This document shows positions 2,962-39,214 of a stretch of DNA of 64,000 bases, one piece after another (the first letter of the stretch is position 1; every line of letters begins with the position of its first letter). The translations under genes were made by a program, and so were the position numbers. The notes below the pieces were generated by a model, which did no database searches, was not told the DNA's origin, and worked only from the letters and a program-made list of their open reading frames with translations. Source of the DNA: an uncultured Spirochaetota bacterium (lineage in GTDB: Bacteria > Spirochaetota > Spirochaetia > SZUA-6 > Fen-1364); the NCBI GenBank assembly GCA_963820525.1, contig CAWGAA010000001.1:1344001-1408000 (forward strand), written 5' to 3'.

Positions 2962-2971
2962 GGAATACGAA

Positions 2972-5140: not shown

Positions 5141-5143
5141 GAG

Positions 5144-8285: not shown

Positions 8286-8296
8286 GAGAAGAATGG

Positions 8297-12335: not shown

Positions 12336-12337
12336 AT

Positions 12338-14846: not shown

Positions 14847-14848
14847 TT

Positions 14849-18750: not shown

Positions 18751-19422
18751 TCACGGCATGAGCAACAAAAAAAGTAGATCGTTTGGCAACAGGCAGTAGT
18801 TCAGCATCGTTACACTTGGGCTTGTACTTCCCAAAGTCCCTCTGACCGTCATCCTTGTCGGTGGAACTACGGGCGTATTGGATTGCTCCAACAGTTCGGA
18901 AATTCCACCCTTTTGGGAAATGATTATTCTCGTCCCCAATTCATAGTTGTAGATTACATCGCCATCTCTTCTCATCAATACCAAACCAGCGGCGTCCAGT
19001 ATCTGGCCCTTTGATAGATCTACCCGGCGGACAACGCGGCCGTTTATGGTGTCCACAAAACCCGAGACAGTGGGTCGGAGGGACCGTTCGCCTTCCGCGT
19101 TCTCTTTGAGGAAGTCATTCTTGGTTGAGTATTGTACTTCCAGTCCATCTCCAGTCCATCTGATCCTTTGAGTATAATGGTACTGGTTGTTAGAATACTC
19201 CGAATTGACCGTACTGTCGCTTTTTGATATGACAAGACGCTCGAGAGCGGAACTGTCAGACCTCTGCGTCTTGACGGCGCTCGTGACGACGCCATCGTCG
19301 CCCTTTTCTATTGTCCAATCAATGCTTTCCTGGCCGCCTCGAAGGCTTATTCCAATTGTTATTGTCTCAGCAGAAAGGCAGCCTCCGATCAACACTAAAA
19401 ACAAAGCTGCGGTTGCTTTCAC
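18751..19422 (-). CDS. Secreted hypothetical protein, candidate immunity protein for the RHS toxin
   Basis: GTG start 18 nt after the RHS stop, GGGAGGG SD, N-terminal signal peptide (MKATAALFLVLIGGCLSA). Confidence 0.65.
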   Translation of the reverse strand: MKATAALFLVLIGGCLSAETITIGISLRGGQESIDWTIEKGDDGVVTSAVKTQRSDSSALERLVISKSDSTVNSEYSNNQYHYTQRIRWTGDGLEVQYSTKNDFLKENAEGERSLRPTVSGFVDTINGRVVRRVDLSKGQILDAAGLVLMRRDGDVIYNYELGTRIIISQKGGISELLEQSNTPVVPPTRMTVRGTLGSTSPSVTMLNYCLLPNDLLFLLLMP

Positions 19423-22400
19423 CCAAACCCTCCCAATTGGCTAGTCGCCGGTGTTGGCCGTAATCGTAACGGGCGTTCTCTCGTAAAGCGCTGTTTGCAC
19501 AGTATCTCCGAGCTCATTGACATTGGCGTTACTCATTCGAATACAACCGTATGTATTATCATTGATATTGTTCGCAGCCTGTGGAGACGTCACGGATCCG
19601 GCTACACCATAGGCATTCCCACGCTCGTCATATCCCCCGCCGTGGACTGCATAGCCCCAGTCGGTTGTCGTACCACTCGGGACCCAATTGCCTTCGGGAT
19701 TCTGGACCTGGGTTGTAACGGTCTGATGAGCGTCCGTAATTATTTCAGTCTGGCCATAAGCGTCGTTGTTTGGATGTCTCACTTCTGTAACGTTCCACGT
19801 TCCATTGGGAAATCGTTGAGGATAGTAGTTCTGCCCGCTTGGAGTTGTTGTCGCAGCGGGGGTCGCCATAGGTTGCGGATTGTTTGTGGCTGTATATGTG
19901 GCGACCTTTATGGTCGAAATCGCACCCGTATGAGAGGTGACATCAAGATAAACGCCCATTCTCTGATTTGCTCTGTCAAACACCAAACGCAGTCTGTCCA
20001 ACCCCGTGGGATCCACGAACGCCAGTGGGTTATTCCAGCAGTACGCATACCAGTTCGCCCCATCGCGAGCTGGGTCCTCGGTTATGAATCTGCCTAGTTG
20101 TGGGTCATACCATCTGGCGTTGGAGTAATACAGGCCGGTGTCAGGATCAAGTTCCTTGCCCGTGTACATGCCGTCGAAGTCTAGTATCCCATTACTTCTC
20201 GCAATCTTTCCGAACGCTTCATACTCTGCATCCCACACAATCTGCCCCGAGATATTGGTAACGACATTGGTCGTTCCTTCGTGGTCGGTGTGATGCCAAT
20301 ATGTCGTGCTGGTAGTCTCTGACGTGCGCACCTCGGCCCAGATCTGCCCTAGGGCTTCAATATACTTCCGCTGCACCTTTCCGTCTTCAGTCCAGAGCAA
20401 GTCGCCGGAAAGATCGTACTGATAGTAGTAAACGGTAGAACCCTTTGTCGTCTGAACCCTCAGGTCCCTGATATCGTACGAGTAACGGGCCACAGCCTTT
20501 AGCCCGGTGGTCCCTTTAGTCGAGTGACCCACCTGCACAAGACGGTTCTTCAGGTCGTACGTGTATTGCCAGAGCTCGCCGTTGTCTTGGTCCCAGGCGG
20601 ATCGATTGGCAGCCGAGTCCCATCTCCCCTGGTTTCCGCGCGAGATCAGGTTCCCGTTCGCGTCGTAGTTGAATGACCAGCTTCCTGCCTGCTTAATTCT
20701 GCTTGAGCCGGCGTAATAGGTGTACACCTTGTCTTCTGAATAGCTGCCCTTGATATCGTTTTCCGCAAGCCTGTTGCCAAGGGCATCATATGTCCAAGAA
20801 GTCATATGTCCATTAACGTTGAACCAAACCTGTACCAGCTTCAAGGGGGTGTCGACCACCGTCGAATTATCCTCGGCGTGATTGCTTTCATCTCTTTCAT
20901 CCCAGGTCATGTGGACCTTCAAGAACTGAGCCTGATGAGAGCTTTCAAGTTGCAGCGTTACTCCACCTTCGTCCTGCATCCAAGTGGTGTCGGTGAGCTT
21001 TGTCCAGCTGCCGGATGTTCCGTCATTGCTCGCATAAAGCTCTACAGTTCTGGGAGAAATCCTGGAGCTGACGCCCGCAAGCCTTACCTTGTTGATGTTT
21101 CGAGCAGTCTGGAAATCGACCCCAACACTGGAAGCGTGGTAGTCCAGTTTGACAGGAGCGGATGGGTCACTGAAATCGAGGGGATTCCTTCCCGCCACAT
21201 CTCGTTCCCGGCTTCCGTAGTTTATGCCGCTTATGTCTTTGGTGTTTACTTCAAACTCGCCGGCTTCCTGAGTCAAAACCAGCCGGTTGAGCTTGTCATA
21301 GCCGTAAGAGCTGTAATGTCCATCCTTCACCTGGGTTACCAGGTTTCCTTCATTGTCCCATGCCAGGCTCCGAGCTGATTTTCCTTCAATATGCCAGTCA
21401 TACTCTTCAAGCGATCCGGTGATGGGATCCCAATTCTTCGTGCGCCGCGAGCCGTCGGACGCCGAAAGGCTGGTGAGCCTTCCCATGAAGTTATACTGCC
21501 CGGCTGAGGCGTAGCCAGGAATGTCGGTGAGTTGTCCAAGGCCATTATAAAGACAGCTCACGACACTTCCATCAGGGTAGGTGATGCTTGTCGGGTTATG
21601 GGCGTCGTCATAAGTATAGGAGACGCTGAGATTCTTTGAACCGACAGAAGTAGTGTAGCTGTTGATCAGGTCGTATGGATCCGGGACATAAATGGAGCTT
21701 GCCTGGTTTATCGAAGTCTGAACGCTCCCATCGGTTGCAGACTTCAGAGATCCCGCCGCGTCATAAGTCCAGGATTCATTGAGAGACCGGCTTCCGTTTG
21801 AGAAGCTCTTGGAAGTGATGCGTCCCGCATTGTCGTAGCCGTTTGTGATTGTGGTCTGGTTGGGGTCAGTTTGTTGGATCACAAGACCACGTTCATCGTA
21901 GGCGTAGCTCCAAACTTGACCCAGGTTGTTCTGTTCATAGGTAAGCTCTCCGTATTGGTCATACCCACGTACCCACACCTGGTTTCCATTCTGTGGATTC
22001 TCGAAAACGCTCTGTACGGGTTCGTCCCAGACATCGTAGACGGTTCGTGTGACATTGCTGTAAGGGTCTGTGCTGCTGGCGGGCTTGTTCTGGCTATTGA
22101 ACACTACCGTGGTGGTGTAGCCCATGGCGTCGCTTGTGCTTGTGGCGCGGCCCAGCTTATCCAGGATCAAGTGCTGCTCTGTTCTATCCGGGAAATAGGT
22201 ATCGGTAAGGCGGCTCATGCCGTCATACGTCTTTGAGGTCACAAGGCCGGAGCTTGATTCGGGGTGTGCCGTGTTCAAGTTCGACACGACGATTTCCTTA
22301 ACCGGATTTCCTTTAGCGTCGTACCCCCAAGCAGTGACTAGTGGCCCCGTTCCATCGGCACCGCTTACGCTTTGGCTGGTCTTTCTATTGCGAGAATCAT

Positions 22401-23300
22401 AGGTCCAAACCGTGACTTTCCCGGCAGGATCGATCTGGCTTGTGGCATTGCCGCGAAGATCGTAGGAGATCTGGACCTTTCCGCGCGGCCGTCCTGCCAC
22501 GGGCGGCAAGTCCGCTAACACGAGGCGGTCGAGGTCGTTATACAGGTAATTAAGGGTGAAGTTGTCCGAAACCGAGGGGTTGGGATTGGATCTTGGATCC
22601 TTCATCTGGATCTTTCGATCCCGGATATCGTAGCGGTAGCGGACGGTTGCGCCGGTTGGATCGGTTTCGGTGAGCACTTGATTGCGGCTGGAGTAGCTTT
22701 TAAAGCTCAGTCCTTCTACTCCATCGACGTCCATGCTGTTATTCTTGATCGCTTCAACAACAAGCGGATCGGCATGTTGAATGAGGTTTCCCGAAGCGTC
22801 GTACCAGCTCCATTCCTCGCGTGTCCCAACAAGCTTCTTGATCGCTCTTCCCGCTGTGTCATAGGTAGATTCCACTGTTCGATAGTTGCCGGAGTGCCCT
22901 GTCTGTTGCCTGATGGCCTGCCCAGCATCGTCGTAGAGCGTGATATCTGTGGGTGTGGCGGTTGTCAGAGTAACATCGGGGAGGACAGTTGACGGCGTGG
23001 GCGGACTTTGCCAAACATCCACTGGAGGATGATCTACCTCTCTGGGCTTTCCGAATGGGCTATATCTGGTAACCGTCTTTTGCCCCAACGGATCGACAAC
23101 CGCGACAGTCTCTCCCAGGCCATTGTAATATGTCTGGGTAACGGCGTTAATTCCCCGCGGATCCACGATCTTGGTTTGTGTAGCGTCCTTCCAGGTGGTC
23201 CATTCCTGGGTGATTATCCCGCGCTCGTCCGTAGTGGTTTTAAGATTCTGAGAGTCGTCGTACACCGTGCTGATTCCGGCGCCGTCGGGGTACGATATGC

Positions 23301-24919
23301 GGGATATAACCGAATCTTGTGGGTGGACAGGGAATAAAAAGAGCGTATCCTTCGGTGAAACCAAGCACAACCAAGGAATCACCGATTGGAGGACACGCTC
23401 ATGGACGAAACTATCACATCCGGGCTGAAAATCGAAGGGGGCAATTCCCAGGAATTGTTGGAGCAGTTGGTCCGCTCTGGCGCGCGCAGTGCCCTGCAGG
23501 CGGCGCTGGAGGAAGAAGTCAATCAGTTCCTGCAAAAGTTCACGCACTTGCGAGACGAGAAAGGGCACCGGAAGGCGGTGCGCAACGGCTACATGCCCCC
23601 GCGGACCATCCTCAGCGGGGTCGGGCCACTGCCGATCCGTCAACCGCGCGTGGACGATCGCGGGCTTCGCGATATCGAAGGGGGCGAACGATTCTCCAGC
23701 AGGATCCTGCCGCGCTTCATGCGCAAGATGCCGAGCCTGGAGGGGTTGATCCCGGTGCTGTACCTGAAGGGCATCTCCACGGGGGACTTCAGCGAAGCTT
23801 TGGCTGCGATCCTGGGCGAAGGGGCCAAGGGGCTGTCGGCCTCGACGATCACGCGGCTGAAGGAGGGGTGGCTGGAGGAGCACACGCAGTGGAGCAGCCG
23901 GGGCCTGGAGGACAAGGAGTACGTGTACCTGTGGGCGGACGGCATCTACGTCAACGTGCGTCTGGATGACGAACGCAGTTGTCTGCTGGTGCTCATCGGG
24001 GCCACACGGGAGGGCAAGAAGGAGCTGGTGGCCGTCAGCGACGGCTATCGCGAGAGTAAGGCCAGCTGGCGGGAGATGCTGCTGGACCTGAAGGCCCGGG
24101 GGCTGAGAATGGCAGGAAAACTGGTCATTGGGGATGGGGCGCTGGGATTCTGGGCAGCGGCCGAGGAGGTGTTCCCGGGGATGAAGCACCAACGCTGCTG
24201 GGTGCACAAGACCGCCAACGTTCTGGACAAGCTGCCCAAGGGGGTTCAGTCGAAGGCCAAGGCGATGCTTCACGCCATGTATCAGGCCGAGACGAAGGAG
24301 GCGGCACTGAAGGCGTATCGTTTGTTCATCGGCTGCTTTAGGGACAAGTACCCCAAGGCCGTGGAATGCCTGGAGAAGGACGAGCAGGCCCTTTTCACGT
24401 TCTACGAGTTTCCCGCGGCGCACTGGCTTCACATACGAACGACCAACCCCATCGAGTCCACGTTCGCGACGGTGAGGCTTCGCACGGCGAAGACCAAGGG
24501 GTGCGGATCGCGGGCGGCCACCCTGTCGATGGTGTTCAAGCTCTGCCGGGAGGCGGAGAAGAGCTGGCGGGGTCTGGACGGGGCAAAGTGGATCCCGATG
24601 GTGCTGGAGGGCAAGCGTTTCATCGACGGAGAGCTCAAGGAGGACGTCGCGTAGCGGCATCCGTCAGCCACCCGGGGCTGGGAAGATCGGCGGCGAACAG
24701 GATGGCTGCAAATCGTCGTGAGGATGTTCGACGAGTCATCGACTGAAAAATCGTGCGTCGTGGTGGGCCTACAACGCATTTGCGAAGGCCAGTTGGTATC
24801 TGTACACCCCCTCTACGGCGCCCGGTCTCGAGGAAAGGAGGGCATAGGGGTCAACAGCAGTTTCGAAATCATCGTTGGATACGCTCGCAATCCTGATCCA
24901 CAAGAATTGACAATATCCC
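23301..24919 (+). mobile_element. IS256-family insertion sequence, 1619 bp
   Basis: Imperfect 24-bp terminal IRs GGGATATAACCGAATCTTGTGGGT / GGGATATTGTCAATTCTTGTGGAT; 9-bp TSD ACGATATGC at 23292-23300 and 24920-24928. Confidence 0.95.
23401..24654 (+). CDS. IS256-family (mutator-type) DDE transposase
   Basis: RNGY, LYLKGISTGD, YLWADGIY, IGDGALG, QRCWVHK, RTTNPIES; GGAGGA SD. Confidence 0.96.
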   Translation: MDETITSGLKIEGGNSQELLEQLVRSGARSALQAALEEEVNQFLQKFTHLRDEKGHRKAVRNGYMPPRTILSGVGPLPIRQPRVDDRGLRDIEGGERFSSRILPRFMRKMPSLEGLIPVLYLKGISTGDFSEALAAILGEGAKGLSASTITRLKEGWLEEHTQWSSRGLEDKEYVYLWADGIYVNVRLDDERSCLLVLIGATREGKKELVAVSDGYRESKASWREMLLDLKARGLRMAGKLVIGDGALGFWAAAEEVFPGMKHQRCWVHKTANVLDKLPKGVQSKAKAMLHAMYQAETKEAALKAYRLFIGCFRDKYPKAVECLEKDEQALFTFYEFPAAHWLHIRTTNPIESTFATVRLRTAKTKGCGSRAATLSMVFKLCREAEKSWRGLDGAKWIPMVLEGKRFIDGELKEDVA

Positions 24920-27900
24920 ACGATATGCTTGCAGGCCTTCCTTTCGCATCATATCCATAACCGGTAGTATGCCCGTTTGGATCCGTCATTGAGGCCACAT
25001 CGCCCCAAGCCGTATACGTCACCCTTGTGGTAATGTCTTCAGGAGTCGCCAGGGCAACAAGCGCACCGGCCTGGACTCCCAAATAGTTGTGCTTGTCTAT
25101 GCGTATCAATTGCCCCAGTGTGTCATAGGCATACACCTCGAAAGGCTTTCCGATGTTGTTGCTCGCCCCTGAGGTGAAAGATGCTTTGTAGACGGTTGCG
25201 GTGAGAGCGGAATCGTTGTATGCAATATGGGTCCATGGCGAATTGGCATGAACCACGTTCCAGGTTCCGGGGGCTAGCGGAGGCTCATCACCGGGCTTGA
25301 TCGTGTCGGTGACCCTGCCTAGCTTGTCATAGCGATATTCGGTTACATATCCCCGGGCATCCTTCTCGTAGAGCTTCCAGCCGCTCCACCAGTCCGTAGC
25401 GGTCTCGCTGACAAGGCTTGTTCGGCTGCCGATGGGGTCGGCCACATTCTGGACGGTCTGCGTCGCGACGAAAAAGTCCTTCGAGGTTCTTGAGTAATCA
25501 TAATCCCAGATGGTTTTCTGGTCGGGGTTCGGGCCGGTCTTGCTCTTTACCGCACCGGCGGATAGAAGAGCCGAGTCTGTAAAGTATTCGTAATCAGACC
25601 TTGACCAGTGATCGCCCAGCCACAAACCTTCTGATTTCTTGAGCCCAAATGAATTATACAGGAACTGCTGGGCACGTTCATCGAATCCGCCGCCCGCCTC
25701 ATTGGGGCGGTAGGCATGGATCAGCGTGCCCTTGAGCAGGTCATGTGTTTCTCCATTGCTCAGTGCATCATCCGATCCCATTGAGGGCAGATTCCAAACG
25801 GAGGGAGCTGAGGATCCGCTGTTCAGATACCACATCCATCGTTCGCATTTGTTTTCTCTGCCGTTGGCAAAGCTGTCTTCAAAAACGTAAGTCTGGTTTC
25901 CCCAAGCGTCATAGCGATAGACATTCCTGGAAGTCGTGGCAGATCCACGAGTTGTTGTTGAAGCTGTGATGTGATGATGCGTGGTGTCCCATGTATTGGA
26001 AACTGATTCGAGAAACCTCCCGGTGGCCGCATCGTATGTTGAAGAACCGGATTGGAGCGTGGAGACTTCGTTCACCGTTAATCCTTGACTGGAAAAGACG
26101 GACTGGAGGTATGTCGCGAGGTAATCGTCCCAGCTTATGAACCGGTTTCGGCTGTGGACCACCGTCATGAAGTCTTGCACGGTTTTTAGCCGGCCATCAT
26201 TGGTCGTTGCCCTACTTACGTAGAATTGGTATTCCCTCGAAGACCATTCATAGGAGTAGCTTGTGTTCCTGATAACCCCTGTGCTGCTTGTCACCTTGAC
26301 GTTTTCAGTCGCTAAACGAAGAATGATGTCGTAGCTGAGCTTGAGGGCGGTAGGGAAGAGACCCAAAAACCAGTCGTCCGCTTCCGCCTTGAACAGCGAT
26401 AAGTCCTTGACGCCGACGCCGACATCCGTGGTTCCTATTCCGGGGGCGACGACCCTGCTGATGGCATATGGGAAATTGAGCTCGATATGTCCGCTTAAGG
26501 TCAGATCCGCTATTCCCAACAGATTGTTCATGAATCCAAGGCCGGTCAGTTCGAGCAGGAGGGCGAGGAAATTGATTTTGACGCTTCCCCCTCCTGCAAC
26601 AAGGGTTTTTCGTTCATAAAAGTAGGTGCTGATTCTGCCTACCGGATCTGTCGAGGAGTCGAGAGTCGGGAGAAAATTGAACAAGAAGGATAGGTCACTG
26701 GAGGCGGTCCAATTGTAATTGTAGCTGGCTGTCCTTGTTTGGCCCTCAAAGCCGGAAGTCGAGATCTTGGTAATGACCGGCTTTAAAAAGATGGAAGCCG
26801 CCGGCGGCAAATTGTACTCGAAATTGACTTTTCGGCCGAAATCGTCCGTTATACTTTCAAGCAGAAGGCCGTTGTAGGTGAAGTGAAATCCCGATAAGCC
26901 GGTCTTATCCCTTATCTGGACCACACGGCCGTTTCCATCAAAAAGATAGTAGGTGCCGTCTCTTGTCCACAGCTCGCTTGCAATCGTGTTCCAGCCCGGA
27001 ATTAATTTGGGAAGGAGATTCAGCGTTCCATCGCCCACACCAAGAGCTTGGCAGATTTTAGAGATTGCGGCTGAGCCGGTTATGCCGGTTGCATCTATGT
27101 TACCCCGAACCTGCGTGGCGCGGAAATGAAAATCCTCGCCTTCATGAAACTCGAAGTCAAGAGTCCGTGAAACCGGATTCGACCAGAAGCTGCTCTGGCT
27201 TTCCATCTGGTTGATGCCGTAGTAGCCGCCGGTGGGAAGCCGAACCATCACCGTTTCATTCGTGGTTATCACGTAGGGAAGGCTCAACCGCCAGCCGACG
27301 CCTAGGGAAAGTGCGTAATCTCCGTTATGTTTCAACATGCCGTCGACCTTTGCCTTGATTGCCCCCACCATGGTGCTTACGCCGTTGGAGACCAGCTGTC
27401 CTCCGATGAAATCACCCAGTCCGGCAAGATCCCCCAGATTGGAAAGGCCAAGGCTGATCGATGCACTCAAAGAAAGGCTCGGGCTGTCAACGGTCGCCGT
27501 GCCTGTGTCATACATCCTCTTGATGGGAAGGGTGAATCCGTTCTTTCCCTGAAGAACGAACTCCGTGACTTCCACCATCGCCGTTCCGCCCTGTGGGGAC
27601 ACCGTCACCGCCCCCAAGGAGCTTTCCCCCTTGAACGGGCTATGCCCGATGTCCTTGAGCTGCTGGGGTGAGAGGTCCTGGATCATGGTGGGTTGAACGG
27701 AAAACGCGGTGAAATGGTTTGTAAAGAAGAGGATTTTATGCTGATCTCGGTCTATCGCAGACTTTTCGATAAGAAACCATTTATTCCAAGTCGTATCGAA
27801 GTAGTAAACGCCGAGGTTCGCTTCGGGAAACCCGTTGGGAAGCCGGCTTTCATCATAATCCAGGACTACGACCACTTCTTTGGAGAACTCGGCATGCGAG

Positions 27901-30900
27901 TTTTCGCTTAAGCTCCCGTCTTGGCCCAGCGCCAGTGTGCTTAAGGAGTAGATGGGTCCGATTATGGGATAGGCTGAGGCGTCCTGCAGCCCCTGGCTTT
28001 CCACCTCCTGCACAAGGACCACCTTGTCCTCCTGCGGCAAAGCCGAAGGTGGGATGACCACCCCAAAACCCTTGTATTCTACAATCGTGGTCTCTTGGGG
28101 ATTTGAGGAAACCGGTTGGACCGCCAGTCCGGAAATAGTGTCCAAGGTCTGTGTCTTGGGCCCCATGTTGGCGGCGCGGTCTTCAGCCCAAACCTCATAG
28201 CTGTACACGTCTCCATCGGTCAAGCCCGTGTCATCCACCTGGAGAGAAGGAGTGAGATGTTCCCCGTCGGGCAAGGCCGGCGAGCGAACTATGTGATACC
28301 GTATAACGTCCGTGTCGGAAGTCTGCCAGATCACCTCCACCAAGCCCTTGCCTGGTATGCCCTTGAGATTCTGAACGGCAGCAGGCGGAGTGGTATCGAT
28401 TTTCAATTCAATGGATTCGATGGTCGCATTCCCCGCCACATCCAGCGCTTTCACTTGCACCTGGTGAACGCCGTCTGAAAGAATTGGTAGTCTGTAGGGG
28501 CTGCTCTGGGACGTCCAGCTTCCGGCATCGATCTGTGCCTCGAAGTGATCCATTCCCGAATAGCTGTCTGTAGTTGAGAACGAGATTGTGGGCTGGTTGT
28601 TGCTCGTCCAGCCGCTGACGTTCGCCGTGATAATAAAGCGCGCGGGAGGCGTGTTGTCGATCTTAAGCGGCACACTGACTACCGACCCCGCGGTTCCCGC
28701 CTTGTTCACGGGCTGCAGCTTGAAGACAAACGCGCCTTCAACCGTCATGGGGATAGAGAGGCTGAAGGATCCCGAGGAGGCGTCGTAGCCGACGCCGTTG
28801 ACGATGATTCGATCGGGATCGGGGCTGTTTACGGTTCCCTTGACGGGAACAACGCGGGAATAGAACGTGTTTGCCACGGGCTGGATCAGGCTCAGACTCG
28901 GCTTGGATCGATCTAAAAAAACCTGAAGAGTTTTCGTGACAGGCTTGATGCGGTCGTCAGCGGTAACGACGAGCGTGTTCAACCCGTCCGAAAGCGTGAT
29001 GGGCTGGCTGGTGTAGCGGAAGCCGTCAATTGTCGCCGTCTTTCCGTTAACTGTGACCTTGACCCGATTCCTGCTTATAACGGTGCCGGATACCACATAC
29101 TTTGCAGAATTGACATAGGCAACACGGCCCTCTCCGTCTATTGTTAGAATAATGCCTTTGTCATAGCGAACGATTGTCACCGTGGCCTTCTGGATCATGG
29201 CACCGGTTCTCACATCGTAGGCATACACGGGAATCGTGTTGATTCCATACTGTAGGCCGGCCGTGTAATGGAAGGCGCCGGAAATCACGGGAACTTCCTG
29301 GGCTCCCGCCAGAATGCGAACATTGGAGTCCTTCACCCACCCGGACAACATGTAGGTTTCACTTTCAGTCTTGATGGGTTGATCCGAATCGAACCAGAAC
29401 TTCACGATATCGTCAGGGTCTTCACCAACAAGGACTCCAATTGACCGACTCGCCAATAGGTTCTTATCCTTGAAGGCCTGGGCCACAATCGTCTCTAAAC
29501 CATTCTTATCCAGATCAAGAGCTCGCAGGCGAATCGTGAAGATGTTCCCGCGGACCGAGGCTTTGTGTCCGCTGACCTTTACCTCGACCCCTTCCTGGTC
29601 CACCTCTCCTATCAGATACCCGCTTCGGCTTTCTCCCCGGGACAGGCTTTCCCCGTTCTTGGGCCACAAAACGGAAACACTCGCGGCACCGGCATCGTTT
29701 GAGTCTCCCCACGTCTCGATCTCGCCAATGCCCCTTTGCCCGCAAACCACCTTGACCTGAGCCAGGTCTCCCCACGAGGAGTAAAGCTTGCCTCCCTCCT
29801 CGACAAGGAACTCACCCTCGGTCCATCCTCCCGCTCCGTCGGGCAAAAGAATCTGCCCGTCTCCTACAAGCCTCAATCGTCCAAAGCTCACGGGAGGGAC
29901 AAATGTTTTGACAAAGCTGTCCCCCGTCCAATTGCCAATCTGCCAACCGTCCGAAATATCAGGGACGCCCCAATCGACGTTTATCCTGCCATCGGAGGCT
30001 TGTAGGCGAACTCGGCCTTCCACCCAGTCCGATCCCACCCCGCCAACGGCAACGAAGTTCTCCCCTTCGTTCATGGCGGTTTCAAGGTCATCTGCGCGGA
30101 AGTAGCCGACGCCATTGCTCGATCCAAGCAGGCGCACGGCTCGCGAGCTGCCGTTTATGGTCAAACTCGGACTTTGGCTGCCGTCGCCTTTCAGGGCAAA
30201 CTCATAAGCGGCCTTTCTCTCATCGTCTTTGGCTCTCGAGAACACTGCAAAGCGTCCACCGTCTACGAGGTTTCCTTCGGCAAGGATTTCGGGAAAAGAA
30301 TCTCCTTCATAGGCACCGACTCCCCAGAGTGAGACCTCACCAATGCTTGCCCAGTCGAACATTCCCCTGGAAAGCGTGAACTTCATTTGACTGATAAGAG
30401 CCTGCTTCTTCGGATTGTCCAGGCTCGTCCACTGTCCAGGCTTCGGAGCAATGCGGCCCAGTTCCTGCCAACTGCCATCTATATAGCCCTGGACGATTAC
30501 CGTACTCCTTGCGGTGTCGTCAAAATACACATCGATGCGGTGCAGGTGCTTGCCTGCCCCCAGATCCGCCCATGCCACCGATCCCCAGTCGCTGCAGGTG
30601 CCCCAGTGACCGTCCGTTTTATCGTGGAAGAACCTCCGGGCGTCATCGTCGTCCCAATCGTCGTCGGCAGTGGGACGCGTTTTCCAGCTCGTTCCGACCT
30701 TACCGTCGAAGAGGTTGGATACGGGGTAGAACGAAGAGCTGTCGGGGGTGCCCTTGACGGCTACGGGCTGGATACGGTTCCAGATAGTCCCCACGTCCCT
30801 TCCCTGGATCGTAAGCTCGTTGATCTGGACCTGGCTCAAATCCGCGGCCTCGATGCTTAGCCTGATCGTATCCGTTACCAACTTTTCAAAGCTTAAGTCC

Positions 30901-31231
30901 CAATCGTTTCCGCTCTGCCTGCTGAAGAAATCACGATATGTTCCGTTTGTCTCATACTGCCAGTGAACAACGACGTCGTCACCGCCCTGGATCAAAAGAC
31001 CTGCCTTGCCTACCAGGTACGGACCTGCCAGGCTCACGTCGATCCAGCCCGTGGTTCCACCCGCGAAGCGAATGCCCGTGTCGGCTCGACCGTCAATGAG
31101 CTCCGCACCGAGGCTTTGCCCCTGCAGCGTAGAGGAGAAATCCAGCTTTGAAATCGCGATGGTCTGGCCGTAGCACCAGGCGCCCACGAGAATCAACGCC
31201 GCAACGATTGTTATTATCTTTTTCATCTTGT

Positions 31232-34200
31232 TCACCGGTTTCCACTATTGCCCGGAAGGGCATTCAGCTCTTCAATCGTGATCTGGCTTATCCCCAGCCT
31301 GTAGTAGTTCACACCGTTGTTGGAGAACACATTGCCAAGAAGCGTGTACACCCCGGCGCCATCTTCCTTGACCCCATACTCTACGTTGTTCGCAAATGCA
31401 GCACTGGCTAGCTTCAGCGTGCCCCCCAAAAGATGGATGCCGATCAGATCGTCACTCAACACAGTCTGACTCAGGTTCACAGTTCCCGTCGGAAGAAGGA
31501 CTAGCCCCCGTTCCGCTCGGTCAACTTCCAATCCGCTTCCACCGGCAAGACCGGCCACTGTAATCCCGCGCCACAGTAGGGTGCTGTCCGGAGCATTAAA
31601 GATCGAGCGCACGCCGGAGTTCGCCACCTTAAGCGAGCCGCCGGAATCCACAAGAATGCCTCCCTCCATGATTCCATCTTCTCCGAAGGGAGCCAGCACC
31701 GTTCCGTCGACGGAGTCCAACGTCAACTCAAGACCGAAGGGTATCTCGACTATTCCCGTCAGAGTCACAGCACCTGTCCAATACTCATTCGTGAAAAGCT
31801 TCCCCGCTGTCGTGTTGTGTACCTCTACGGGTATGCTTTCCACCCTGGTCTTGCCCCATGCGTCCGTCACCGTTAGCATAAGCGTGTAGCTGGTTACCTG
31901 ATTCCTGCCATTCTGGAAGTACGCAGACAGTGTCCCTCCGGCCGGCCATACCGTGATAGATTTCGTTTCAGTCTGTTGGCCCGAGAAACCAACGGGAGTG
32001 CCGCCGCCCAGATTCCAGGAATAGCTCAGCGGGTAGTCCCGGCTGTCGTCGGTCACCAAAACAAGCTGTTCAAGAGTGAGCACCGCACCCGGGGTTGTTG
32101 TGACCGTAGTTCCCCCGCTACTGAGATAGACCGCAGGCGCAATATTGAATCGAAGCGAATCGACAACGGTCGTTTGATTGCCGTAGAGATCTGTTCCTGT
32201 CACGCTCAGTGCTGCCGTTCCAGTTTCGGAAACCGTCACAATAGCGTGGGACTTGATGCCGACATCCTGACTCGCCTGAGGTTTGCCGTCTATTGTTGCC
32301 GGCGGAGGGCTTTGAAGAACGCCATTCACGGAGAGGGCGAAAGTCGTACCTTCCTTCCCCGAGGTGAGGGTTACCGTCTCCGCTGGTTCATTGCTAACCT
32401 TATTCCCGCTTGAATCCCTGGCGGCAAACACGGTGTTTGAGTAAACAAACCCGATCGCCGGCGGCGTCCAATTCACATCGACCGCCGTGCTCGCAACCGC
32501 CGGACCCCAGTCCTCCGTGCCGTTCTGGATCCGAATGAATGCATAGTAGCTCTTCTGCTCGGTTGCGCCCGTAATGCCTATTCCCGATGCATTCCAACTA
32601 AAAGCGGGCTGATTGTCGGCGATGCTGACGGTGGAGGCGCCGTTCCAATCCACTGAAGCTGGATTCGAGGAAAGTACAGTCTGGTATACGAGGATCCCGC
32701 TCTGATTGTCCTGGCCCGTCAGGGTCCAACCGTCGATCGTTCCCGTATTGCCGGATGCGTTGCTGTGGGCGCCGCCTCTCGAAATCGTGATGCCTGTAGC
32801 CGGAGTCTCGTCAACAAGAATTGTCTCGCTGGGCGTCGTGACGCTCCAGACTCCCGTTCTGCTCTGCGCCTTGATATCCAGGCACAGTGTCTGTCCGTCT
32901 ATCGGAATCTTGTTCGCCTCCGAGATCAGCGCCGTGTATGGATCTTTCCATGAACGTATTGCCAAGCCGCTGTAGTCCGCGGTCCAGTCCTGAAGAATCT
33001 GCCCGGTTTGCGCGTCTTTCAACCGCCACTGAACCTGCTGAATCCCGCCGGACGCTATGCTGTAGCGAACCGACTCGACATTGAAATGGTTGCTGAAATA
33101 CCTGCTATAATCGAATGCGGCTAAAATCGGCACGGCAGTAGAGATTGTCAGAGATGCCGTTTTCGAGCCGCCCATTCCTAAGAAAGTGACGGGCGTCACC
33201 GTCACCTGGAACACGTCTCCTTCGTGGTAGCCCAACTCCTTCCAACTTCCGCTCCATAGTTTCTGGGTAAGCGTAATTGTCTCACCATCCCCGATACGCA
33301 GTTGGTAGCCCTGAATAAAGTCCGAATCATGATCCACTTGCCAGCTGAAGCTCACCGAGTTTTCAGTGAGGTTCCCCTGCAAGGCGGTTATCGTCGGGAA
33401 ATCTCCTTCAACCTTGAAGGCTGCGCTGTATGCCACGCTCTGATTGTCTGCATTGTCGATTGCGTGGCCTTTGATCATCCAAATCGAGCCCGCCTGTGCC
33501 GTCTCCGTGCCTGATCCCAGCTTGAGAGGATCGGAATAAAGCAGGGCGCCATTCGTCAGCCCAGAGCTTCCAACCGAATCCCCACGCGCAATAAATCCTG
33601 TACCGGGATTCCACGTTCCAACCTGCACCTCGAAGCTCTTCAACCCGCTTTCAAAGTCACCGCTGTTGAATTGCGCAAGCACAGAGGGTGGAACCCCTAA
33701 TGTGGAAAGTTGGACGTGGCCTTCGATTGGCGCCTTCCCGCTTGCCCCCTGGGAAACTGCTACAATCGTATTCACCCATGGAGCTTTGCTGTCCAGCATG
33801 ACTCCACTGCTATAGCCTACACTTTCAAGCCCAACCCCGTTCACCGTCTTGACCGCGAAGAACAGCACCGTCCCGTCAGAATAGGCCCCCGCAGAGGTCC
33901 CATACTTCGACAGTGAGAAGTCCAGATTGCTCACCGAGGTCTGGCCGATCACCTTCGTCCAGGCGTTTTCGGCAAGCTCACCGGCATTCGTGTAGGCTTT
34001 CCAGTAATACTCCACGGTCCCGCTTTCAGGATCCGGCGGGGTGAAAGTCCAATTAAAGCTCAGCTTCTGGTATCGAATGCCCAGAGGATCTCCGGCGACA
34101 CCGCTTGGCTTGTAGCGAACCGCATCTGCCATCGGGATTACTAACGGAGTCGGGGGAGCTGTGCCGTCCACAATCATGATCCCGCTTTCCTGCGTGGTGG

Positions 34201-37200
34201 TAAGCCCCGCACCATCCTCAACGGAGACTTCAACCACAATCCGATCTCCGGTGCCGACGCCCTCGGTGCCGCTCAAATCAACATCCAGGCGTTGTCCGTT
34301 TGTTTGCACGGAGGCAAAGTTCTCCTGCCTTACAAGCATCCATGACCAGCTCCCGTCCGATTGCAGGGCCGAACGCTTGACAAGGACTGATCCCCCCGTT
34401 GTTCCGGATTGAGGATCTTCTCCTGCAAACGATAGCCACACGTCGTTGGGCGCAACGAAGCTTGGAACCGAAAAAAGTGTCACAACCGGAGGCGTCGTGT
34501 CGACAACACTCCCCGTGCTTGTAACATCGGCCAGTATGCTTCCGTCTGCATCGAACGCCTTCACCTCAATCGCAACAACATCACCGTCGCTCAGATGCAC
34601 TCCCGTCGACTGTGCTGCAAAATCCAAATCAAGCGTTGCCGAGGTCGACTTTTGTACTTCACTCCAATCCCGAAGAACAACGCCGTCTCCCAGCCGAATC
34701 CACCGGTGTTCATAGCCGTCGGGACTGCCCCCCGCATAGTCCCACCGCGCGGCAATAGTCCCCTTTCCGGCATTGAAGTGTTGGTCGTTCACGAACAGCC
34801 CGATCCCGGCTATCGACACCATGATCGGCGATGCGCTTACCGTGATGCCCGAACCACTTGTTGCTAAAAATACGATGCTGAAAGTTCCCGCTGTGGGGAT
34901 GACGATCTCACTGCCCGGCCTATAGTCCTGGCTGACTACCGCCCCTGTTCCGCCGACATTCTGATATGACCACGTCCATTCCACAGGACCATAGGGATCC
35001 GTTGCTTGGGTATACGGCTGAATGCCTTGCCCCACGATGAAGCCTGTTACGCCTCCTACTATTGAGGCTGTAACGTCTTGAGGGCCTACCCCATCCTTGG
35101 TAAATACGGGGCTTGAAAGTACCGTACCTACAACCTCGTTAGCGTTTCTCACCTGAAGCTGGACACGGTAGGATTGCCCGTCCTCACTTATGCGGTTTCG
35201 CACAGCTTCGAATGACGTCCCCCAGCTGCTCCACTCATCCGCGTTCTCCGGGAGACTTCCGTCTTGATTGACAAGCTGTATGTTCCACCTGGCCCCTTGA
35301 ACCAGGTTGGTGCTATTGGCATCCGCTAAAGCATAGCTTGCCGCAAGATCCGATGCCTGTTTCACCCAATAGCGTCCGGTACAGCTTCTCATTCCGCCAA
35401 CCGACAGACTAACAACCGGTCCTGCCGCCTTATATGCTACGCCCCAAGTGCCGCCGCCTGCCGCCGGCCATTCCGAAGTATTACCGGCTTTGTCAATCAA
35501 CCTTATCTGGAGTTTTCGAACACCGTCTTGGGCGCCGCTCATGCTTAGCGTGTATGTGTCTATATCCGTATGAAAGACATCGAAAATCGCTCCGGGAACC
35601 GGAGCTACAGCGGCCGGCGTCCATTCACCAGCCGCCCCCTGACCGTCTACCCATCGGTAGGATGCTCCGGCAAGCCCGACACCACCGATCTCGTTCACCT
35701 CGATACTTGCCGTCACACTGCCGTCAGGACCGGCATACGTATTGCCCTCGGTGTCCGTCTCCGTCGTGGTGAAATGGAACGAATTGGCTACAAGAGCTGG
35801 GGCCGTCGTGTCAAATACCTTTATGCACGCGGGAAGGATTGCCTGGTTTCCGGCATTGTCCCATGCTTTCAGTTGGATGGAGTATTGCCCGTCCGTAACG
35901 GAGAGAAGCAGATCGAACTTCCCCGCCGAATCGCAAGTTACAGTTTGCTCACCGTGGATCTGTGCATTTCCGATCTTTTCCCACGTGATTTGCACATTCT
36001 TTTGCCCGCTCCCTCCAGCCTCTGTGACGGTCCCGGAGACCGTCTTTGAGTTCGTGGCGGCTATCGGGCTCGCCATCATCCCGGAAAGGGTGATCTGCGG
36101 CGCCTCCACATCCCAACTGATGTTTCCCTTTGACAGCTGAGCTGAAGTGTTGGGTATGGTCGGGTTGGCAAAAGTTGTCGGCTTTATTCCAATCCATTCG
36201 TCAATCGTCAAACGAATCTTCTTTGACTGGAGCGCCCCTTTGAGTTCACTCAAAGAGCTGCTCTCAGGATCCATCTTGCAGAGCTTCCACAGACTGTAGT
36301 CATACGTGGGGGGTATTCCCCCGCTTGACGCTATCAATTGCTTCTCATACGACGACGAGGTGTCGAATCCTCCGTGTCCGTCATCGATTCCCAGCTCGAA
36401 TTGATAGCTTATGTTGTTGCCGTCCGCAGTGCTCAGAGGGAAGCCGGTTGTGTCAAAGCTCCCACTCGCCGCCACCCATGATATCTCAAACGTCGGCTGC
36501 GCTAAGGTGGAGTAGGGCACTGTGTATGAGGGGGCGATTACTCCTTCAATTTTGATTTGTTGTGTGAAATCGGAAGCAACGGCCCCCGTTTCAGAGCTGA
36601 TATCCACAAAGGGCTTATAATAGACGGTTGCTCCCGCTTTCAGGCTGTCGGAAGCAGGCAGCGTGATCCCTGCGGAACCCTGCGCCTCCGAGGTTGTGTT
36701 TGTAATACAGCTGCTGTCAGTGCCGATTCCCCACTCTAGCCCTCGGGTGCCGTTTCCTATGGAAAGGTTTTGCCAGAGAACCCCACTGAGAGCACCGCTG
36801 GACGAATTCTGCCGTTGAGGAGGCTGGAAGGGCCCCGAGCCCCATTGAGGCTTGAAGATCCGTATCGTCTTCGAGACTGAAGGATTTCCCGTCTCGTTTT
36901 TCACCTGGACGGTCAAAAGACGGCTCTTCTCCGCGCCCCAAATGAAAGTGTAATTGTTCCCTTGATCAAGCTCTGTTGAAGGATGTGAAGTATTCGAGGG
37001 ATCCGATATCTCGATGTGGTAATTCGTGAGGTTCGGCAATAGCGCGGGAGCCAACGCTGAGTCCGTATATCCAATGGTCAAGGTGTCGCCGGCGAGAACG
37101 GAAGTCACCTTGTCGGCCGGCAAAGTCCAAGGCTCGTTTTCGGTATGGCTCCAAGCATTAGAATCTCCGTACTTTCGCCCAAACATAGAAAGATTGACAG

Positions 37201-39214
37201 GTGCAGGCTTGCTCCGATGAATGGAGAAGCTGATGGCGCCTGTACTATAAAGGCCTGAGGCGTCATACAGTTTGTAGCTGAGCGTACAGGGTCCGTCAGG
37301 CAGAAAAGCACATCCGTCAGCTATGGGAACACCATTTGGAGTGAAAGGAATCTCAGCGGTGTACTTCCCGCTGCTATCGGCCGTGAATGTGTAGTTCTTT
37401 GTGCTATTGAAAAATTCGGTTCCGCTGCACTTAAGAGAGGTAACGTCTACGCTTTGTGGAGGGGCATAGCAGGAGGAGCTCCCCGTTTTTGAATATGTAT
37501 TATCGGTGTTCTTGCTGAAAGAGAATGTCAAGCTGTCCGCATTGATCGGAATTAAGGCATAGAGAATCTTTTCTGCATTGTCGCTGGATTTGTCATAATA
37601 CTTGGCATTTGAACCACCGAGCGAAATAGCTGTCGTGTTGTAGATGATTGTGCAGGACAAGGGCGGCGTGGTGTTGCCTGCGTTATCAGTGGCGCTAAAT
37701 GTATAGTCGTGAACCCCAACCAAGGGTAGAAAGTTGCTGAGGGACATGGCCGAGTTTACCCCGGGTTGTCCACTAATTGTGTATGTAAACGTTGATACGC
37801 CACTTGTAGTATCTGCTTTCGAAATGCTTACTTGTTGGCTAACATAGTGCGTCTCGCCAGACTGCCAGTTTCCCCCAAGATTAATGGTAGGCGTAACTCG
37901 GTCAATTTTTATATATCTTGTATCAGTTATTGTGCCAACGGCATCCGTCGTTTTTAATTTAACTCTATTATCACCTTCTGACAGATGCGTATCAAGGGGC
38001 AATAAAGGATGGGCTGTATTCCCAATACCAAGTGAAATCCAGTCGCCGGGTGTCGGAGGTTCTTTTAATGTATAAAAAACCTCCAGAGGAACGCTCAAAG
38101 CATCAGCTGCAGTAACGTATATGTGTTGATTCGCTTCGAACCAGGCAATGTTGTACCAGTCAGATTTTGTATCACTTATCATAGGATCGTCAGCAAGAAT
38201 GGTCTGGTGAATCGTACGAGTAGCGGCCGAATTACCAGCATTATCTTTAACATCGAATGTGCATTGGAATTCACCTGTGGCTGTAAGAGGAAGCGTTTTT
38301 GTTTCCAGCCCTACTGCACTGCTATTCCCATTCACATTACAGGTAAATGTGCTGGTTTTTATCCCGCTTCCACCAGATTCGTCAACAGCGGTTACTGTGA
38401 TAGTGCGCGAACGCGCGGCAGGAAATCTTCCATCGGCGCCAAGAGTATACGAAGGATCTGATATAATTTTGAATGTGGGAAGGGTCTTATCAATGTGGGT
38501 AATAGAGCATTCAAGTGGAGTACCTATATTTCCCACATTATCAACGGCTCTGAATGATACATTGCAGTTTGCGTCAACTGTGCAGCTTGCACCATCTGAC
38601 CAATCAGAATCGCCTTCTTTCTTATATTGATACTTTGCAACGCCCGATCCATCACCATCATCACCTCCTGATGCGGTTAATGTAACTGAATCATTTGTCC
38701 AATCTGTCGAAAGCAATGTTTTGGTCGGATCTGATGCTGGGGATAGTGTAATATGAGGTTCTGAAGGTCCATCTGTATCTCCATAGAAAGCTAAATTAGC
38801 CCCTCCATAAGTGTAATACTCCCATCCTCCTGATTGGCCTCCGTTAAAGAATTGCTTTCCGCAAACGGTAATGCTTACATAATGGGCCCCTGCCCCATTT
38901 ATTGTAAACTGCACTGGAAAACCAGACCCAGAAAGGTCTCTGACTAAAGATCCATCTACTATTATAGGCCCATAAATTGAAAATTGATTCGCAAAAGCTT
39001 GATTTGAAATTGAAACTGAGAGAGTCAATCCAAGTGAACTCCCTTGATAGTAGTAAGTTGAGCCAATTTGTGTAACTGCAATATTTGTAACTAAGCGTAT
39101 ATGAGCTACTCCCCAGTAATAGGAGGTGAATGGACTATCATAGCTCCACACACTGTCCGCAAAGCTGGGAGCGCAAATTAAAACACAACAGATAGCTATC
39201 AATATTCTTTTCAT
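31232..39214 (-). CDS. Giant (~2660 aa) secreted Ig-like/FN3-repeat protein with C-terminal beta-helix-like domain
   Basis: Signal peptide MKRILIAICCVLICAPSFA; many D..GN...D.T.P Ig-like repeats; C-terminal WRGITV...IGIHL...NNVEYGV; the stop overlaps the RHS start (GTGA). Confidence 0.85.
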   Translation of the reverse strand: MKRILIAICCVLICAPSFADSVWSYDSPFTSYYWGVAHIRLVTNIAVTQIGSTYYYQGSSLGLTLSVSISNQAFANQFSIYGPIIVDGSLVRDLSGSGFPVQFTINGAGAHYVSITVCGKQFFNGGQSGGWEYYTYGGANLAFYGDTDGPSEPHITLSPASDPTKTLLSTDWTNDSVTLTASGGDDGDGSGVAKYQYKKEGDSDWSDGASCTVDANCNVSFRAVDNVGNIGTPLECSITHIDKTLPTFKIISDPSYTLGADGRFPAARSRTITVTAVDESGGSGIKTSTFTCNVNGNSSAVGLETKTLPLTATGEFQCTFDVKDNAGNSAATRTIHQTILADDPMISDTKSDWYNIAWFEANQHIYVTAADALSVPLEVFYTLKEPPTPGDWISLGIGNTAHPLLPLDTHLSEGDNRVKLKTTDAVGTITDTRYIKIDRVTPTINLGGNWQSGETHYVSQQVSISKADTTSGVSTFTYTISGQPGVNSAMSLSNFLPLVGVHDYTFSATDNAGNTTPPLSCTIIYNTTAISLGGSNAKYYDKSSDNAEKILYALIPINADSLTFSFSKNTDNTYSKTGSSSCYAPPQSVDVTSLKCSGTEFFNSTKNYTFTADSSGKYTAEIPFTPNGVPIADGCAFLPDGPCTLSYKLYDASGLYSTGAISFSIHRSKPAPVNLSMFGRKYGDSNAWSHTENEPWTLPADKVTSVLAGDTLTIGYTDSALAPALLPNLTNYHIEISDPSNTSHPSTELDQGNNYTFIWGAEKSRLLTVQVKNETGNPSVSKTIRIFKPQWGSGPFQPPQRQNSSSGALSGVLWQNLSIGNGTRGLEWGIGTDSSCITNTTSEAQGSAGITLPASDSLKAGATVYYKPFVDISSETGAVASDFTQQIKIEGVIAPSYTVPYSTLAQPTFEISWVAASGSFDTTGFPLSTADGNNISYQFELGIDDGHGGFDTSSSYEKQLIASSGGIPPTYDYSLWKLCKMDPESSSLSELKGALQSKKIRLTIDEWIGIKPTTFANPTIPNTSAQLSKGNISWDVEAPQITLSGMMASPIAATNSKTVSGTVTEAGGSGQKNVQITWEKIGNAQIHGEQTVTCDSAGKFDLLLSVTDGQYSIQLKAWDNAGNQAILPACIKVFDTTAPALVANSFHFTTTETDTEGNTYAGPDGSVTASIEVNEIGGVGLAGASYRWVDGQGAAGEWTPAAVAPVPGAIFDVFHTDIDTYTLSMSGAQDGVRKLQIRLIDKAGNTSEWPAAGGGTWGVAYKAAGPVVSLSVGGMRSCTGRYWVKQASDLAASYALADANSTNLVQGARWNIQLVNQDGSLPENADEWSSWGTSFEAVRNRISEDGQSYRVQLQVRNANEVVGTVLSSPVFTKDGVGPQDVTASIVGGVTGFIVGQGIQPYTQATDPYGPVEWTWSYQNVGGTGAVVSQDYRPGSEIVIPTAGTFSIVFLATSGSGITVSASPIMVSIAGIGLFVNDQHFNAGKGTIAARWDYAGGSPDGYEHRWIRLGDGVVLRDWSEVQKSTSATLDLDFAAQSTGVHLSDGDVVAIEVKAFDADGSILADVTSTGSVVDTTPPVVTLFSVPSFVAPNDVWLSFAGEDPQSGTTGGSVLVKRSALQSDGSWSWMLVRQENFASVQTNGQRLDVDLSGTEGVGTGDRIVVEVSVEDGAGLTTTQESGIMIVDGTAPPTPLVIPMADAVRYKPSGVAGDPLGIRYQKLSFNWTFTPPDPESGTVEYYWKAYTNAGELAENAWTKVIGQTSVSNLDFSLSKYGTSAGAYSDGTVLFFAVKTVNGVGLESVGYSSGVMLDSKAPWVNTIVAVSQGASGKAPIEGHVQLSTLGVPPSVLAQFNSGDFESGLKSFEVQVGTWNPGTGFIARGDSVGSSGLTNGALLYSDPLKLGSGTETAQAGSIWMIKGHAIDNADNQSVAYSAAFKVEGDFPTITALQGNLTENSVSFSWQVDHDSDFIQGYQLRIGDGETITLTQKLWSGSWKELGYHEGDVFQVTVTPVTFLGMGGSKTASLTISTAVPILAAFDYSRYFSNHFNVESVRYSIASGGIQQVQWRLKDAQTGQILQDWTADYSGLAIRSWKDPYTALISEANKIPIDGQTLCLDIKAQSRTGVWSVTTPSETILVDETPATGITISRGGAHSNASGNTGTIDGWTLTGQDNQSGILVYQTVLSSNPASVDWNGASTVSIADNQPAFSWNASGIGITGATEQKSYYAFIRIQNGTEDWGPAVASTAVDVNWTPPAIGFVYSNTVFAARDSSGNKVSNEPAETVTLTSGKEGTTFALSVNGVLQSPPPATIDGKPQASQDVGIKSHAIVTVSETGTAALSVTGTDLYGNQTTVVDSLRFNIAPAVYLSSGGTTVTTTPGAVLTLEQLVLVTDDSRDYPLSYSWNLGGGTPVGFSGQQTETKSITVWPAGGTLSAYFQNGRNQVTSYTLMLTVTDAWGKTRVESIPVEVHNTTAGKLFTNEYWTGAVTLTGIVEIPFGLELTLDSVDGTVLAPFGEDGIMEGGILVDSGGSLKVANSGVRSIFNAPDSTLLWRGITVAGLAGGSGLEVDRAERGLVLLPTGTVNLSQTVLSDDLIGIHLLGGTLKLASAAFANNVEYGVKEDGAGVYTLLGNVFSNNGVNYYRLGISQITIEELNALPGNSGNR

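Follow-up and report, generated by a model that had tools for sequence, protein, structure and literature searches.

A giant beta-helix protein encoded with a signal-peptide RHS protein in diderm bacteria and its genomic link to a spirochaete-type secretin

An operon of two giant genes lies near a T2SS cluster

We examined a stretch of 64,000 nucleotides (hereafter the window) from an uncultured Spirochaetota bacterium (SZUA-6; Fen-1364; GCA_963820525.1, CAWGAA010000001.1:1,344,001-1,408,000, forward strand), which carries an operon for a giant exported protein and an RHS protein. The nearest relatives of the window, gene by gene, are spirochaetes, and the source genome (G000) is 96.7% complete. 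Inspection of the minus strand reveals, in order, the giant gene of 2660 amino acids (aa; ATG at 39214, end at 31232), the RHS gene (from 31235) and a 223-aa open reading frame (ORF) at 18751-19422. The stop codon of the giant overlaps the start codon of the RHS gene (GTGA, 31232-31235). Leaders of the giants and of the downstream proteins were called with a hydrophobicity heuristic (basic-hydrophobic-AxA).

On the plus strand, positions 2497-13012 hold a type II secretion system (T2SS) cluster composed of a prepilin peptidase, the GspD secretin (2972-5140), GspE, GspF, GspG, minor pseudopilins, weak GspL/M-like genes and a CarboxypepD-TPR protein. GspG scores above the TIGR01710 cut-off, GspE and GspF match T2SS models best at scores below cut-off, and GspD, the only secretin in the genome, falls below all cut-offs. 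Neither PilT nor a second GspE-like ATPase was found, and the cluster classes as a T2SS locus. The RHS locus and the T2SS cluster are convergent and 5.7 kb apart. Between them, and outside the toxin system, lies an island of low GC content at third codon positions (GC3; 13277-18140, plus strand) with a DNA methyltransferase, a 387-aa ORF without a family and a HerA-like ATPase, likely an anti-phage defense island.

Much of the initial annotation, made from the letters of this stretch, is borne out. The T2SS-like cluster that it placed about 6 kb away does end at 13012; the RHS protein does have a leader together with discoidin-like, Ig, FN3 and ZU5-like domains; and the small secreted protein assigned to the operon corresponds to the leader-bearing 223-aa ORF behind the RHS gene. 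PAAR and VgrG, reported as lacking from the window, are missing genome-wide along with VipB (PF05488, PF04717 and PF05943 in a profile search of G000 whose positive controls matched). Accordingly the RHS protein, which has a leader in a genome with no type VI secretion system (T6SS) markers, is not a T6SS-delivered Rhs. Two descriptions need amendment. For the giant, the size, leader and Ig domains hold, but its FN3 content is weak (one own-profile match). For the RHS gene, translational coupling agrees with the stop-start overlap, but the intact 3388-aa frame does not exist in this copy, which is split by an IS256-family insertion sequence (IS).

The RHS protein carries a discoidin, Ig and ZU5 arm

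The RHS gene lies in two minus-strand pieces. The 5' piece (24920-31235) encodes the leader, the arm, the ZU5 domain and the first half of the shell, and the 3' piece (19441-23300), which has no leader of its own, encodes YD repeats, an inserted small beta-domain, the RHS core, a DPTGL motif (19999-20013) and the tip. YD repeats and an RHS core followed by a DPxG protease motif before a variable tip place the protein among the RHS/YD polymorphic toxins; the window gene shows this arrangement across its two pieces, and an intact paralog on another contig of the genome (C3) shows it whole. The arm consists of two discoidin domains, two further beta-domains, five Ig domains, one FN3 domain and ZU5. 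The two N-terminal discoidin-like (F5/8 type C) domains map to 30297-31166, the five Ig-like domains and the FN3 domain to 28122-29666, and ZU5 to 27687-28121, all on the minus strand. Profiles detect F5/8 type C in 13/19 aligned relatives, with no match from the window protein alone, and Ig domains in all 19; the FN3 domain was recognized from PDB matches. Discoidin plus Ig1-3 is common to every RHS protein of this partner type, including one that lacks ZU5 (L049), and absent from a sister type built around SpvB.

Assignment of ZU5 rests on a Pfam match in 9 of 18 aligned domains (best E 1.4e-5; the window member alone gives none) and on ankyrin ZU5 as the top PDB matches of the region, at weak E values of 0.025-0.19. 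An H-F-[S/T] motif closes the domain in 19/20 partner-type arms long enough to read, the exception being the ZU5-less L049, and falls in one aligned column (rows cut around the motif). We take this motif to be a self-cleavage site, as in PIDD and Nup98, so that cleavage is predicted here at H-F-T (27716-27708). The arm is modeled as a string of beta-domains (pLDDT 79.7, pTM 0.51), and a Foldseek search with 1181 aa of it returned only generic Ig/FN3 chains.

The SpvB, FG-GAP and TcdB_midN body is absent from the window and C3 RHS proteins and present in a third RHS protein of the genome on contig C2, which accounts for the single SpvB match in G000; no TcA family search was run. Scans of the window, C3 and C2 RHS proteins gave no profile match to the NHL family, and the region from ZU5 to the YD repeats is without a model.

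Further domains accompany this architecture. In partner-type RHS proteins a small domain interrupts the late YD repeats (window approximately 20550-20900, minus strand), where alignments with the SpvB type show a gap. In partner-type proteins of Bacillota (L043:14918-24895, L051:11267-21226) the arm accommodates two inserted cellulose-binding domains of the CBM_3 family. ZU5-like domains also occur in proteins of 900-1300 aa, which is not RHS-sized, in many Leptospira-like genomes (families f28 and f49).

The giant partner ends in a conserved beta-helix

The giant (31232-39214, minus strand) combines a predicted Sec leader, a variable N-terminal part, an Ig-like chain and a conserved C-terminal end, as judged from the ORF, the leader scan and domain profiles. 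Alignment and modeling resolve this signature end (31235-32224) into an Ig/PKD domain followed by a right-handed parallel beta-helix, in which W, A, G and K-E residues do not vary. The model reaches a pLDDT of 82 and superimposes in VIA-align on tailspike and pectate-lyase folds with Z scores of 16.1 (root-mean-square deviation, rmsd, 2.7; 180 aligned) and 15.6 (rmsd 2.8; 162 aligned); a Foldseek search with the C-terminus gave no match at E <= 0.001.

Giants range from approximately 800 to 2800 aa across relatives, with a variable N-terminus, and the beta-helix end is their most conserved part. Between the window giant and its C3 paralog, identity rises from 29-43% at the N-terminus to about 70% at the C-terminus. 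Among the best 150 representatives, a set dominated by PKD and beta-helix repeats, the signature end lies at most 10 aa from the C-terminus in 57/59 full-length matches, and none shows it fused to RHS.

Tips and their downstream proteins are exchanged between homologs

The window tip is a 185-aa domain (19441-19998, minus strand) with a YkuD L,D-transpeptidase fold (Pfam YkuD E 4.9e-8, above cut-off), whose His119 and Cys152 are invariant in 4/4 aligned members, and it is predicted to be a peptidoglycan-attacking toxin. Sequence comparison with the PDB gave no meaningful match, and none to solved Tlde1. Other tips belong by Pfam to Amidase_2 (the C2 tip and an orphan in genome G446) and NlpC/P60 (G446), and those of C3, G114 and the second tip of G446 contain Cys-His pairs that look papain-like by eye and have no Pfam family.

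Tip and downstream gene are swapped together between homologs, such that each tip is followed by its own exported protein; behind the C3 tip this is an exported WG-repeat protein. Orphan tip modules follow in G134, G249, G269, G332, G446 and C2. Swapped and orphan tips are the hallmark of RHS/YD polymorphic toxins. The 223-aa exported protein of the window (18751-19422, minus strand) is, by position and leader, a candidate periplasmic immunity protein. It has no Pfam or NCBIfam family and no likeness to the G446 downstream protein; look-alikes from the LolA-like clan at 0.85 offer a lead only.

An IS256-family element interrupts the window copy

A 1619-bp element of the IS256 family (Mutator) occupies 23301-24919 on the plus strand, inside the RHS gene, with its transposase at 23386-24654 (Mutator profile, E 2e-62). 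It ends in 22-nt terminal inverted repeats and is flanked by a 9-bp target duplication (23292-23300 and 24920-24928). Two further copies in the genome, 100% and 94% identical, are likewise flanked by 9-bp duplications, and the transposase, inverted repeats and 8-9-bp duplication together define the family. The 3388 codons given in the initial annotation equal the RHS span minus the element. With the element in place, the 5' frame runs into it and stops at 24813, and the window allele hence encodes a shortened protein of 2140 aa that lacks core and tip. A 1739-aa ORF at 19441-24660 was rejected as the RHS gene, as its start lies on the antisense strand of the IS.

In public contigs from freshwater sediment the two ends of the element, exactly at 23301 and 24919, adjoin other flanks. 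One public contig spans the right junction of the element into the RHS gene. No empty-site joint was found in low-depth sequencing reads, a result that is uninformative either way.

The pair is conserved in diderm hosts

Loci were drawn from 60 relatives, one species-genome scan (11 loci) and 400 phylum genomes. An RHS gene comes next after the giant gene in 21/24 loci, and the other three (L047 and two in G032) are truncated by a contig edge, which answers favorably the question raised at the outset of whether the giant and signal-peptide RHS pair is conserved. The 21 pair loci come from 18 genomes of Spirochaetota and Bacillota, their RHS proteins share the discoidin-Ig-FN3-ZU5-RHS architecture, and contig ends truncate several of the RHS genes. 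In many loci the two genes are less than 20 bp apart or overlap stop to start; in L045 and L048 a small IS-like gene stands between them.

The pair is rare, occurring in 4/400 phylum genomes (G102, G114, G209 and G446). The end of the giant initially matched 29/401 genomes of the phylum, for the most part through PKD-only or partial hits; of six loci then read (G446, G102, G209, G114, G195 and G137), those of G195 and G137 proved not to be pairs and were dropped.

The 11 loci of the species scan derive from four spirochaetes, six Bacillota (including Halanaerobiales) and one member of the Chitinispirillaceae, with no monoderm host among them. Of the six Bacillota hosts, the five tested all have Omp85 and all have secretins, which match most of the window GspD in four. 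The pair is thus confined to hosts that are, or test as, diderm.

The source genome holds two other RHS systems. The intact paralogous pair (C3:213294-231618) is 57% and 76% identical to the window pair, and the window and C3 RHS proteins share about 75% of the body and not the tip. Upstream of the C3 pair (C3:231689-233393; L012:11689-13393) are ORFs of 383 and 198 aa, 45% alike over 98 aa, with a cadherin-like domain and a lipoprotein-like leader, possibly one split surface lipoprotein. An IS66-like element lies directly 3' of the C3 immunity gene (C3:209255-211620; L011). The third RHS gene (C2:462749-473041) encodes leader, ZU5, SpvB, FG-GAP and TcdB_midN and has no giant partner. Its system spans G000:C2:462141-473601 and bears an Amidase_2 tip; an orphan tip-immunity module (488544-491341) lies 15 kb away, with restriction-modification-like genes between.

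Secretins co-occur with the pair and with its SpvB-type sisters

A secretin is present in 17/18 pair genomes, compared with 24/61 relatives and 245/401 phylum genomes. Fifteen of the 21 pair loci are long enough to assess linkage (six are too short), and in five the pair sits in or beside a T2SS cluster, for which the rough chance probability is 2e-5 with L042 and L044 counted once. Its position varies: 5.7 kb away and convergent in the window, 1.1 kb away in L042, 2.3 kb in L044, 0.2 kb and divergent from gspD in G446, and on the same strand as gspD-E-F-G in G114. Linkage thus recurs in unrelated families, with the pair before, after, divergent from or inside the cluster.

For ZU5-RHS genes as a whole, 17 of 60 relatives have both RHS gene and secretin, 2 the RHS gene only, 6 the secretin only and 35 neither (p 3e-8). 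Scored in the same order, genera give 10/0/3/10 (p 4e-4) and genomes within one genus (g3) 6/2/2/11 (p 0.018); all these p-values are inflated by kinship, since the genomes are not independent. Eighteen spirochaete secretins from such genomes form one starred clade in a tree lacking a Leptospira-type outgroup.

The genomic link between RHS protein and T2SS is wider than initially stated, given that sister SpvB-type ZU5-RHS genes without a giant often stand inside the T2SS operon itself. G015, G016, G017, G249 and G314 carry them within the cluster or next to it, and the operon of G249 contains two RHS genes. One genus (g25) has a secretin in 4/9 genomes (G224, G269, G309 and G332), in each case a form of 400 aa that has a leader of its own and is encoded two genes ahead of the RHS gene (G332:C1, L082:10899-20000; G269, L084; G224, L091; G309, L092). 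The operon order is TPR, outer-membrane protein, lipoprotein, secretin, lipoprotein, ZU5-RHS. These short secretins are 92-98% identical and lack the N-terminal periplasmic domains. GspE at cut-off is found in none of the four genomes (0/5 tested overall) and GspG in none of the three examined for it; the short form is a possible motor-less secretin.

A conserved cassette without annotation precedes SpvB-type ZU5-RHS genes. It encodes a TPR protein, an exported protein of approximately 345 aa with a C-terminus that looks barrel-like by eye, and lipoproteins of approximately 260 and 220 aa (L025:8074-13272, L027:1391-5300, L031:5180-8870, L090:7818-11073, L093:14119-17303). A diverged form of it precedes the giant in G102 and G114.

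Proposed mechanism and alternatives

We favor, at a probability of roughly 55%, a two-protein polymorphic RHS toxin that is predicted to be antibacterial, is exported by Sec and leaves through the spirochaete-type T2SS secretin, with giant docking, cleavage by ZU5 and at DPxGL, attack on peptidoglycan and periplasmic immunity. We infer export, binding, cleavage and toxicity as follows. Both giant proteins would enter the periplasm through Sec and then pass out through the secretin, a likelier exit than a needle because the pair recurs in or beside T2SS genes across diderms. The giant's conserved beta-helix end would dock on the discoidin/Ig arm, as proposed because giant and arm occur together, and its variable N-terminal chain may serve as a spacer, a surface tether or a target-binding end. 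The giant would thereby take the place of the small lipoproteins and outer-membrane protein of SpvB-type operons; its role is the least certain step. ZU5 would cleave itself between F and T of its H-F-T motif, leaving the shell held non-covalently and releasable on the arm, and the DPxGL protease would cut the tip free inside the shell. Released at a neighbor's envelope, the tip would here damage peptidoglycan cross-links with no need to enter the cytoplasm, and the downstream exported protein would shield the producer's periplasm.

Several observations weigh against this scheme. In ten of the 15 assessable pair loci, including C3 and all Bacillota, the 6-32 kb of sequence inspected contains no T2SS gene, and around the C3 pair none appears in 70 kb. 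In the window itself the adjacency is loose. The check suggested by the initial annotation, co-occurrence of pair and secretin, thus has a divided outcome: it succeeds at the level of genomes, but most loci are unlinked and G069, a metagenome-assembled genome of unstated completeness, has the pair with no secretin, GspE or GspG match. ZU5-RHS genes also occur without a secretin in G002 and G018 (89% and 74% complete) and in G134 (one contig, 99%), a fifth RHS-bearing member of genus g25 that has lost the secretin part of the operon and kept two SpvB-type ZU5-RHS genes. Conversely, 19 of 26 secretin-positive genomes of the class lack ZU5-RHS, and the T2SS therefore has other cargo. In G167 a ZU5-RHS gene with a long arm lacks a giant immediately before it. 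Pfam assigns no family to several tips, and by eye two or more resemble a nuclease or metalloprotease. The window RHS copy is a pseudogene-like allele. A folded shell of about 2000 residues would also probably be a tight fit for a secretin channel.

Alternatively, Sec might deliver the same toxin to the periplasm, from which vesicles or local lysis would let it out; linkage would then reflect a hot spot for insertions where the T2SS operon ends, or mean that only the accessory lipoproteins are exported. The secretin-free G069 and G134, the preponderance of unlinked loci and a shell that may exceed the channel all suit this route, as does the window locus, a low-GC3 island convergent on the T2SS with the defense island between. 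We nevertheless consider it unlikely, since a hot spot explains neither the co-occurrence of pair and secretin at genome level (17/18), linked or not, nor the varied positions relative to the cluster, nor yet the 92-98% conserved motor-less secretin within the RHS operon of four genomes. A similarly low probability attaches to a giant that is co-secreted without being a subunit, acting as an adhesin or as a polysaccharide-binding or depolymerizing beta-helix that reaches the target or clears capsule or matrix. Its resemblance to tailspikes and pectate lyases, the invariant K-E, the wide range of lengths and the IS genes between the pair in L045 and L048 would be in keeping with such independence; yet a target-binding tip is expected to vary, while this end is the most conserved part, and the giant tracks the discoidin/Ig arm, with its gene overlapping or nearly abutting the RHS gene in many loci. 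Peptidoglycan-enzyme tips and an adhesin-like arm and partner could also be read as remodeling of the producer's own wall or as kin adhesion with no killing. That idea is very improbable given that the paralogs share their body and not their tip, and that an own exported protein behind each tip and orphan tip modules form the pattern of polymorphic toxins.

Beyond the scheme of secretin-dependent export that we favor for the pair, we tentatively suggest a wider one that seems to us somewhat doubtful at present, namely a distinct and secretin-dedicated route for 380-kDa ZU5-RHS cages in spirochaetes and diderm Firmicutes. Either the giant with its beta-helix or small lipoproteins would hold the self-cleaving arm that carries the cage. 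One genus would make do with a motor-less secretin, truncated at its N-terminus and encoded in the toxin operon, as a channel derived from the T2SS that works with no ATPase or pseudopilus.

Relation to known systems

The closest described class is that of Zhang et al. 2012 (PMC3482391), which likewise unites a signal peptide, a ZU5 autopeptidase, RHS repeats, a variable tip and immunity. In the accessible text of that in silico study, RHS toxins with signal peptides are classed by default as T2SS/Sec cargo, and ZU5, found at N-termini mostly with SpvB or a beta-propeller, is proposed to set the toxin free at the cell surface. The C2 RHS protein (ZU5-SpvB-FG-GAP-TcdB_midN) fits its TcdB/TcaC class. 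In contrast, the window type lacks SpvB and has a 1000-residue discoidin/Ig/FN3 arm, a giant partner and an operonic secretin link; the table of that paper gives no neighborhood genes for the T2SS/Sec class, and its Additional File 1 may list such architectures.

The initial annotation held that characterized diderm RHS toxins are mostly delivered by T6SS or toxin complexes (Tc). This contrast has a tested exception, since Bcn-A, an RHS bacteriocin of Xanthomonas perforans, loses activity in a mutant of the secretin gene xpsD (PMC7259588, in its accessible portion), besides the in silico assignments of PMC3482391. Like the proteins described here, Bcn-A is an RHS/YD antibacterial protein of a diderm, depends on a secretin and has a downstream immunity gene. 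It differs in its size (1398 aa), in having no ZU5/discoidin arm or giant described in that portion, and in using a general T2SS that is not linked to its locus.

WapA of Bacillus and Streptococcus suis (PMC12704120, as far as its accessible text goes) is likewise a Sec-exported, self-cleaving RHS protein, of more than 300 kDa, with cognate export helpers encoded upstream and some tips that act in the periplasm. WapA belongs to monoderm hosts and relies on wall-binding domains and sortase/SecF-like helpers, whereas here the hosts are diderm, with a secretin and the giant as helpers. The present proteins are not WapA proteins, which are defined by a monoderm host and wall-binding repeats, as their hosts are spirochaetes or Omp85-positive Bacillota (5/5 tested). 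Bacterial teneurin-like proteins are a further group of YD-shell toxins that bear a signal, have N-termini of the adhesion type and lack a known delivery machine; probable differences are their FN-plug/NHL/TIP superfold and their lipoprotein or S-layer anchors, and the accessible parts of PMC13018210 mention no ZU5, T2SS or spirochaete.

The window tip shares the His...(S/T)xGC catalytic arrangement of Tlde1 effectors (PMC9638812, accessible text), and its relatives show the published 17-residue spacing. Tlde1 is T6SS cargo with the motif HX14-17(S/T)HGCh; here the domain is the tip of an RHS protein, Tyr replaces the second His, and the window copy has an insert of 12 residues and a spacing of 29. 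For the secretion machinery, the accessible text of PMC4793230 notes a T2SS-like system of Leptospira as untested. We found no giant beta-helix partner, operonic spirochaete secretin or motor-less secretin in an RHS operon in the literature covered, which excludes most subscription papers.

We conclude that the pair is a conserved, undescribed variant of the signal-peptide RHS toxins, for which there is good genomic evidence of secretin-dependent export. The way in which RHS/YD toxins with a signal peptide pass the outer membrane of diderms and arrive at a target is open according to the accessible text of PMC13018210 and assumed by default in that of PMC3482391. The loci described here name candidate parts, namely a secretin clade, a giant partner and a ZU5 release site, and allow complete T2SS operons to be compared with an operon that holds only a secretin and with genomes that have none. 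They also point to a possible cargo of the spirochaete T2SS and to a weapon against other bacteria in lineages for which the present genome shows no T6SS.

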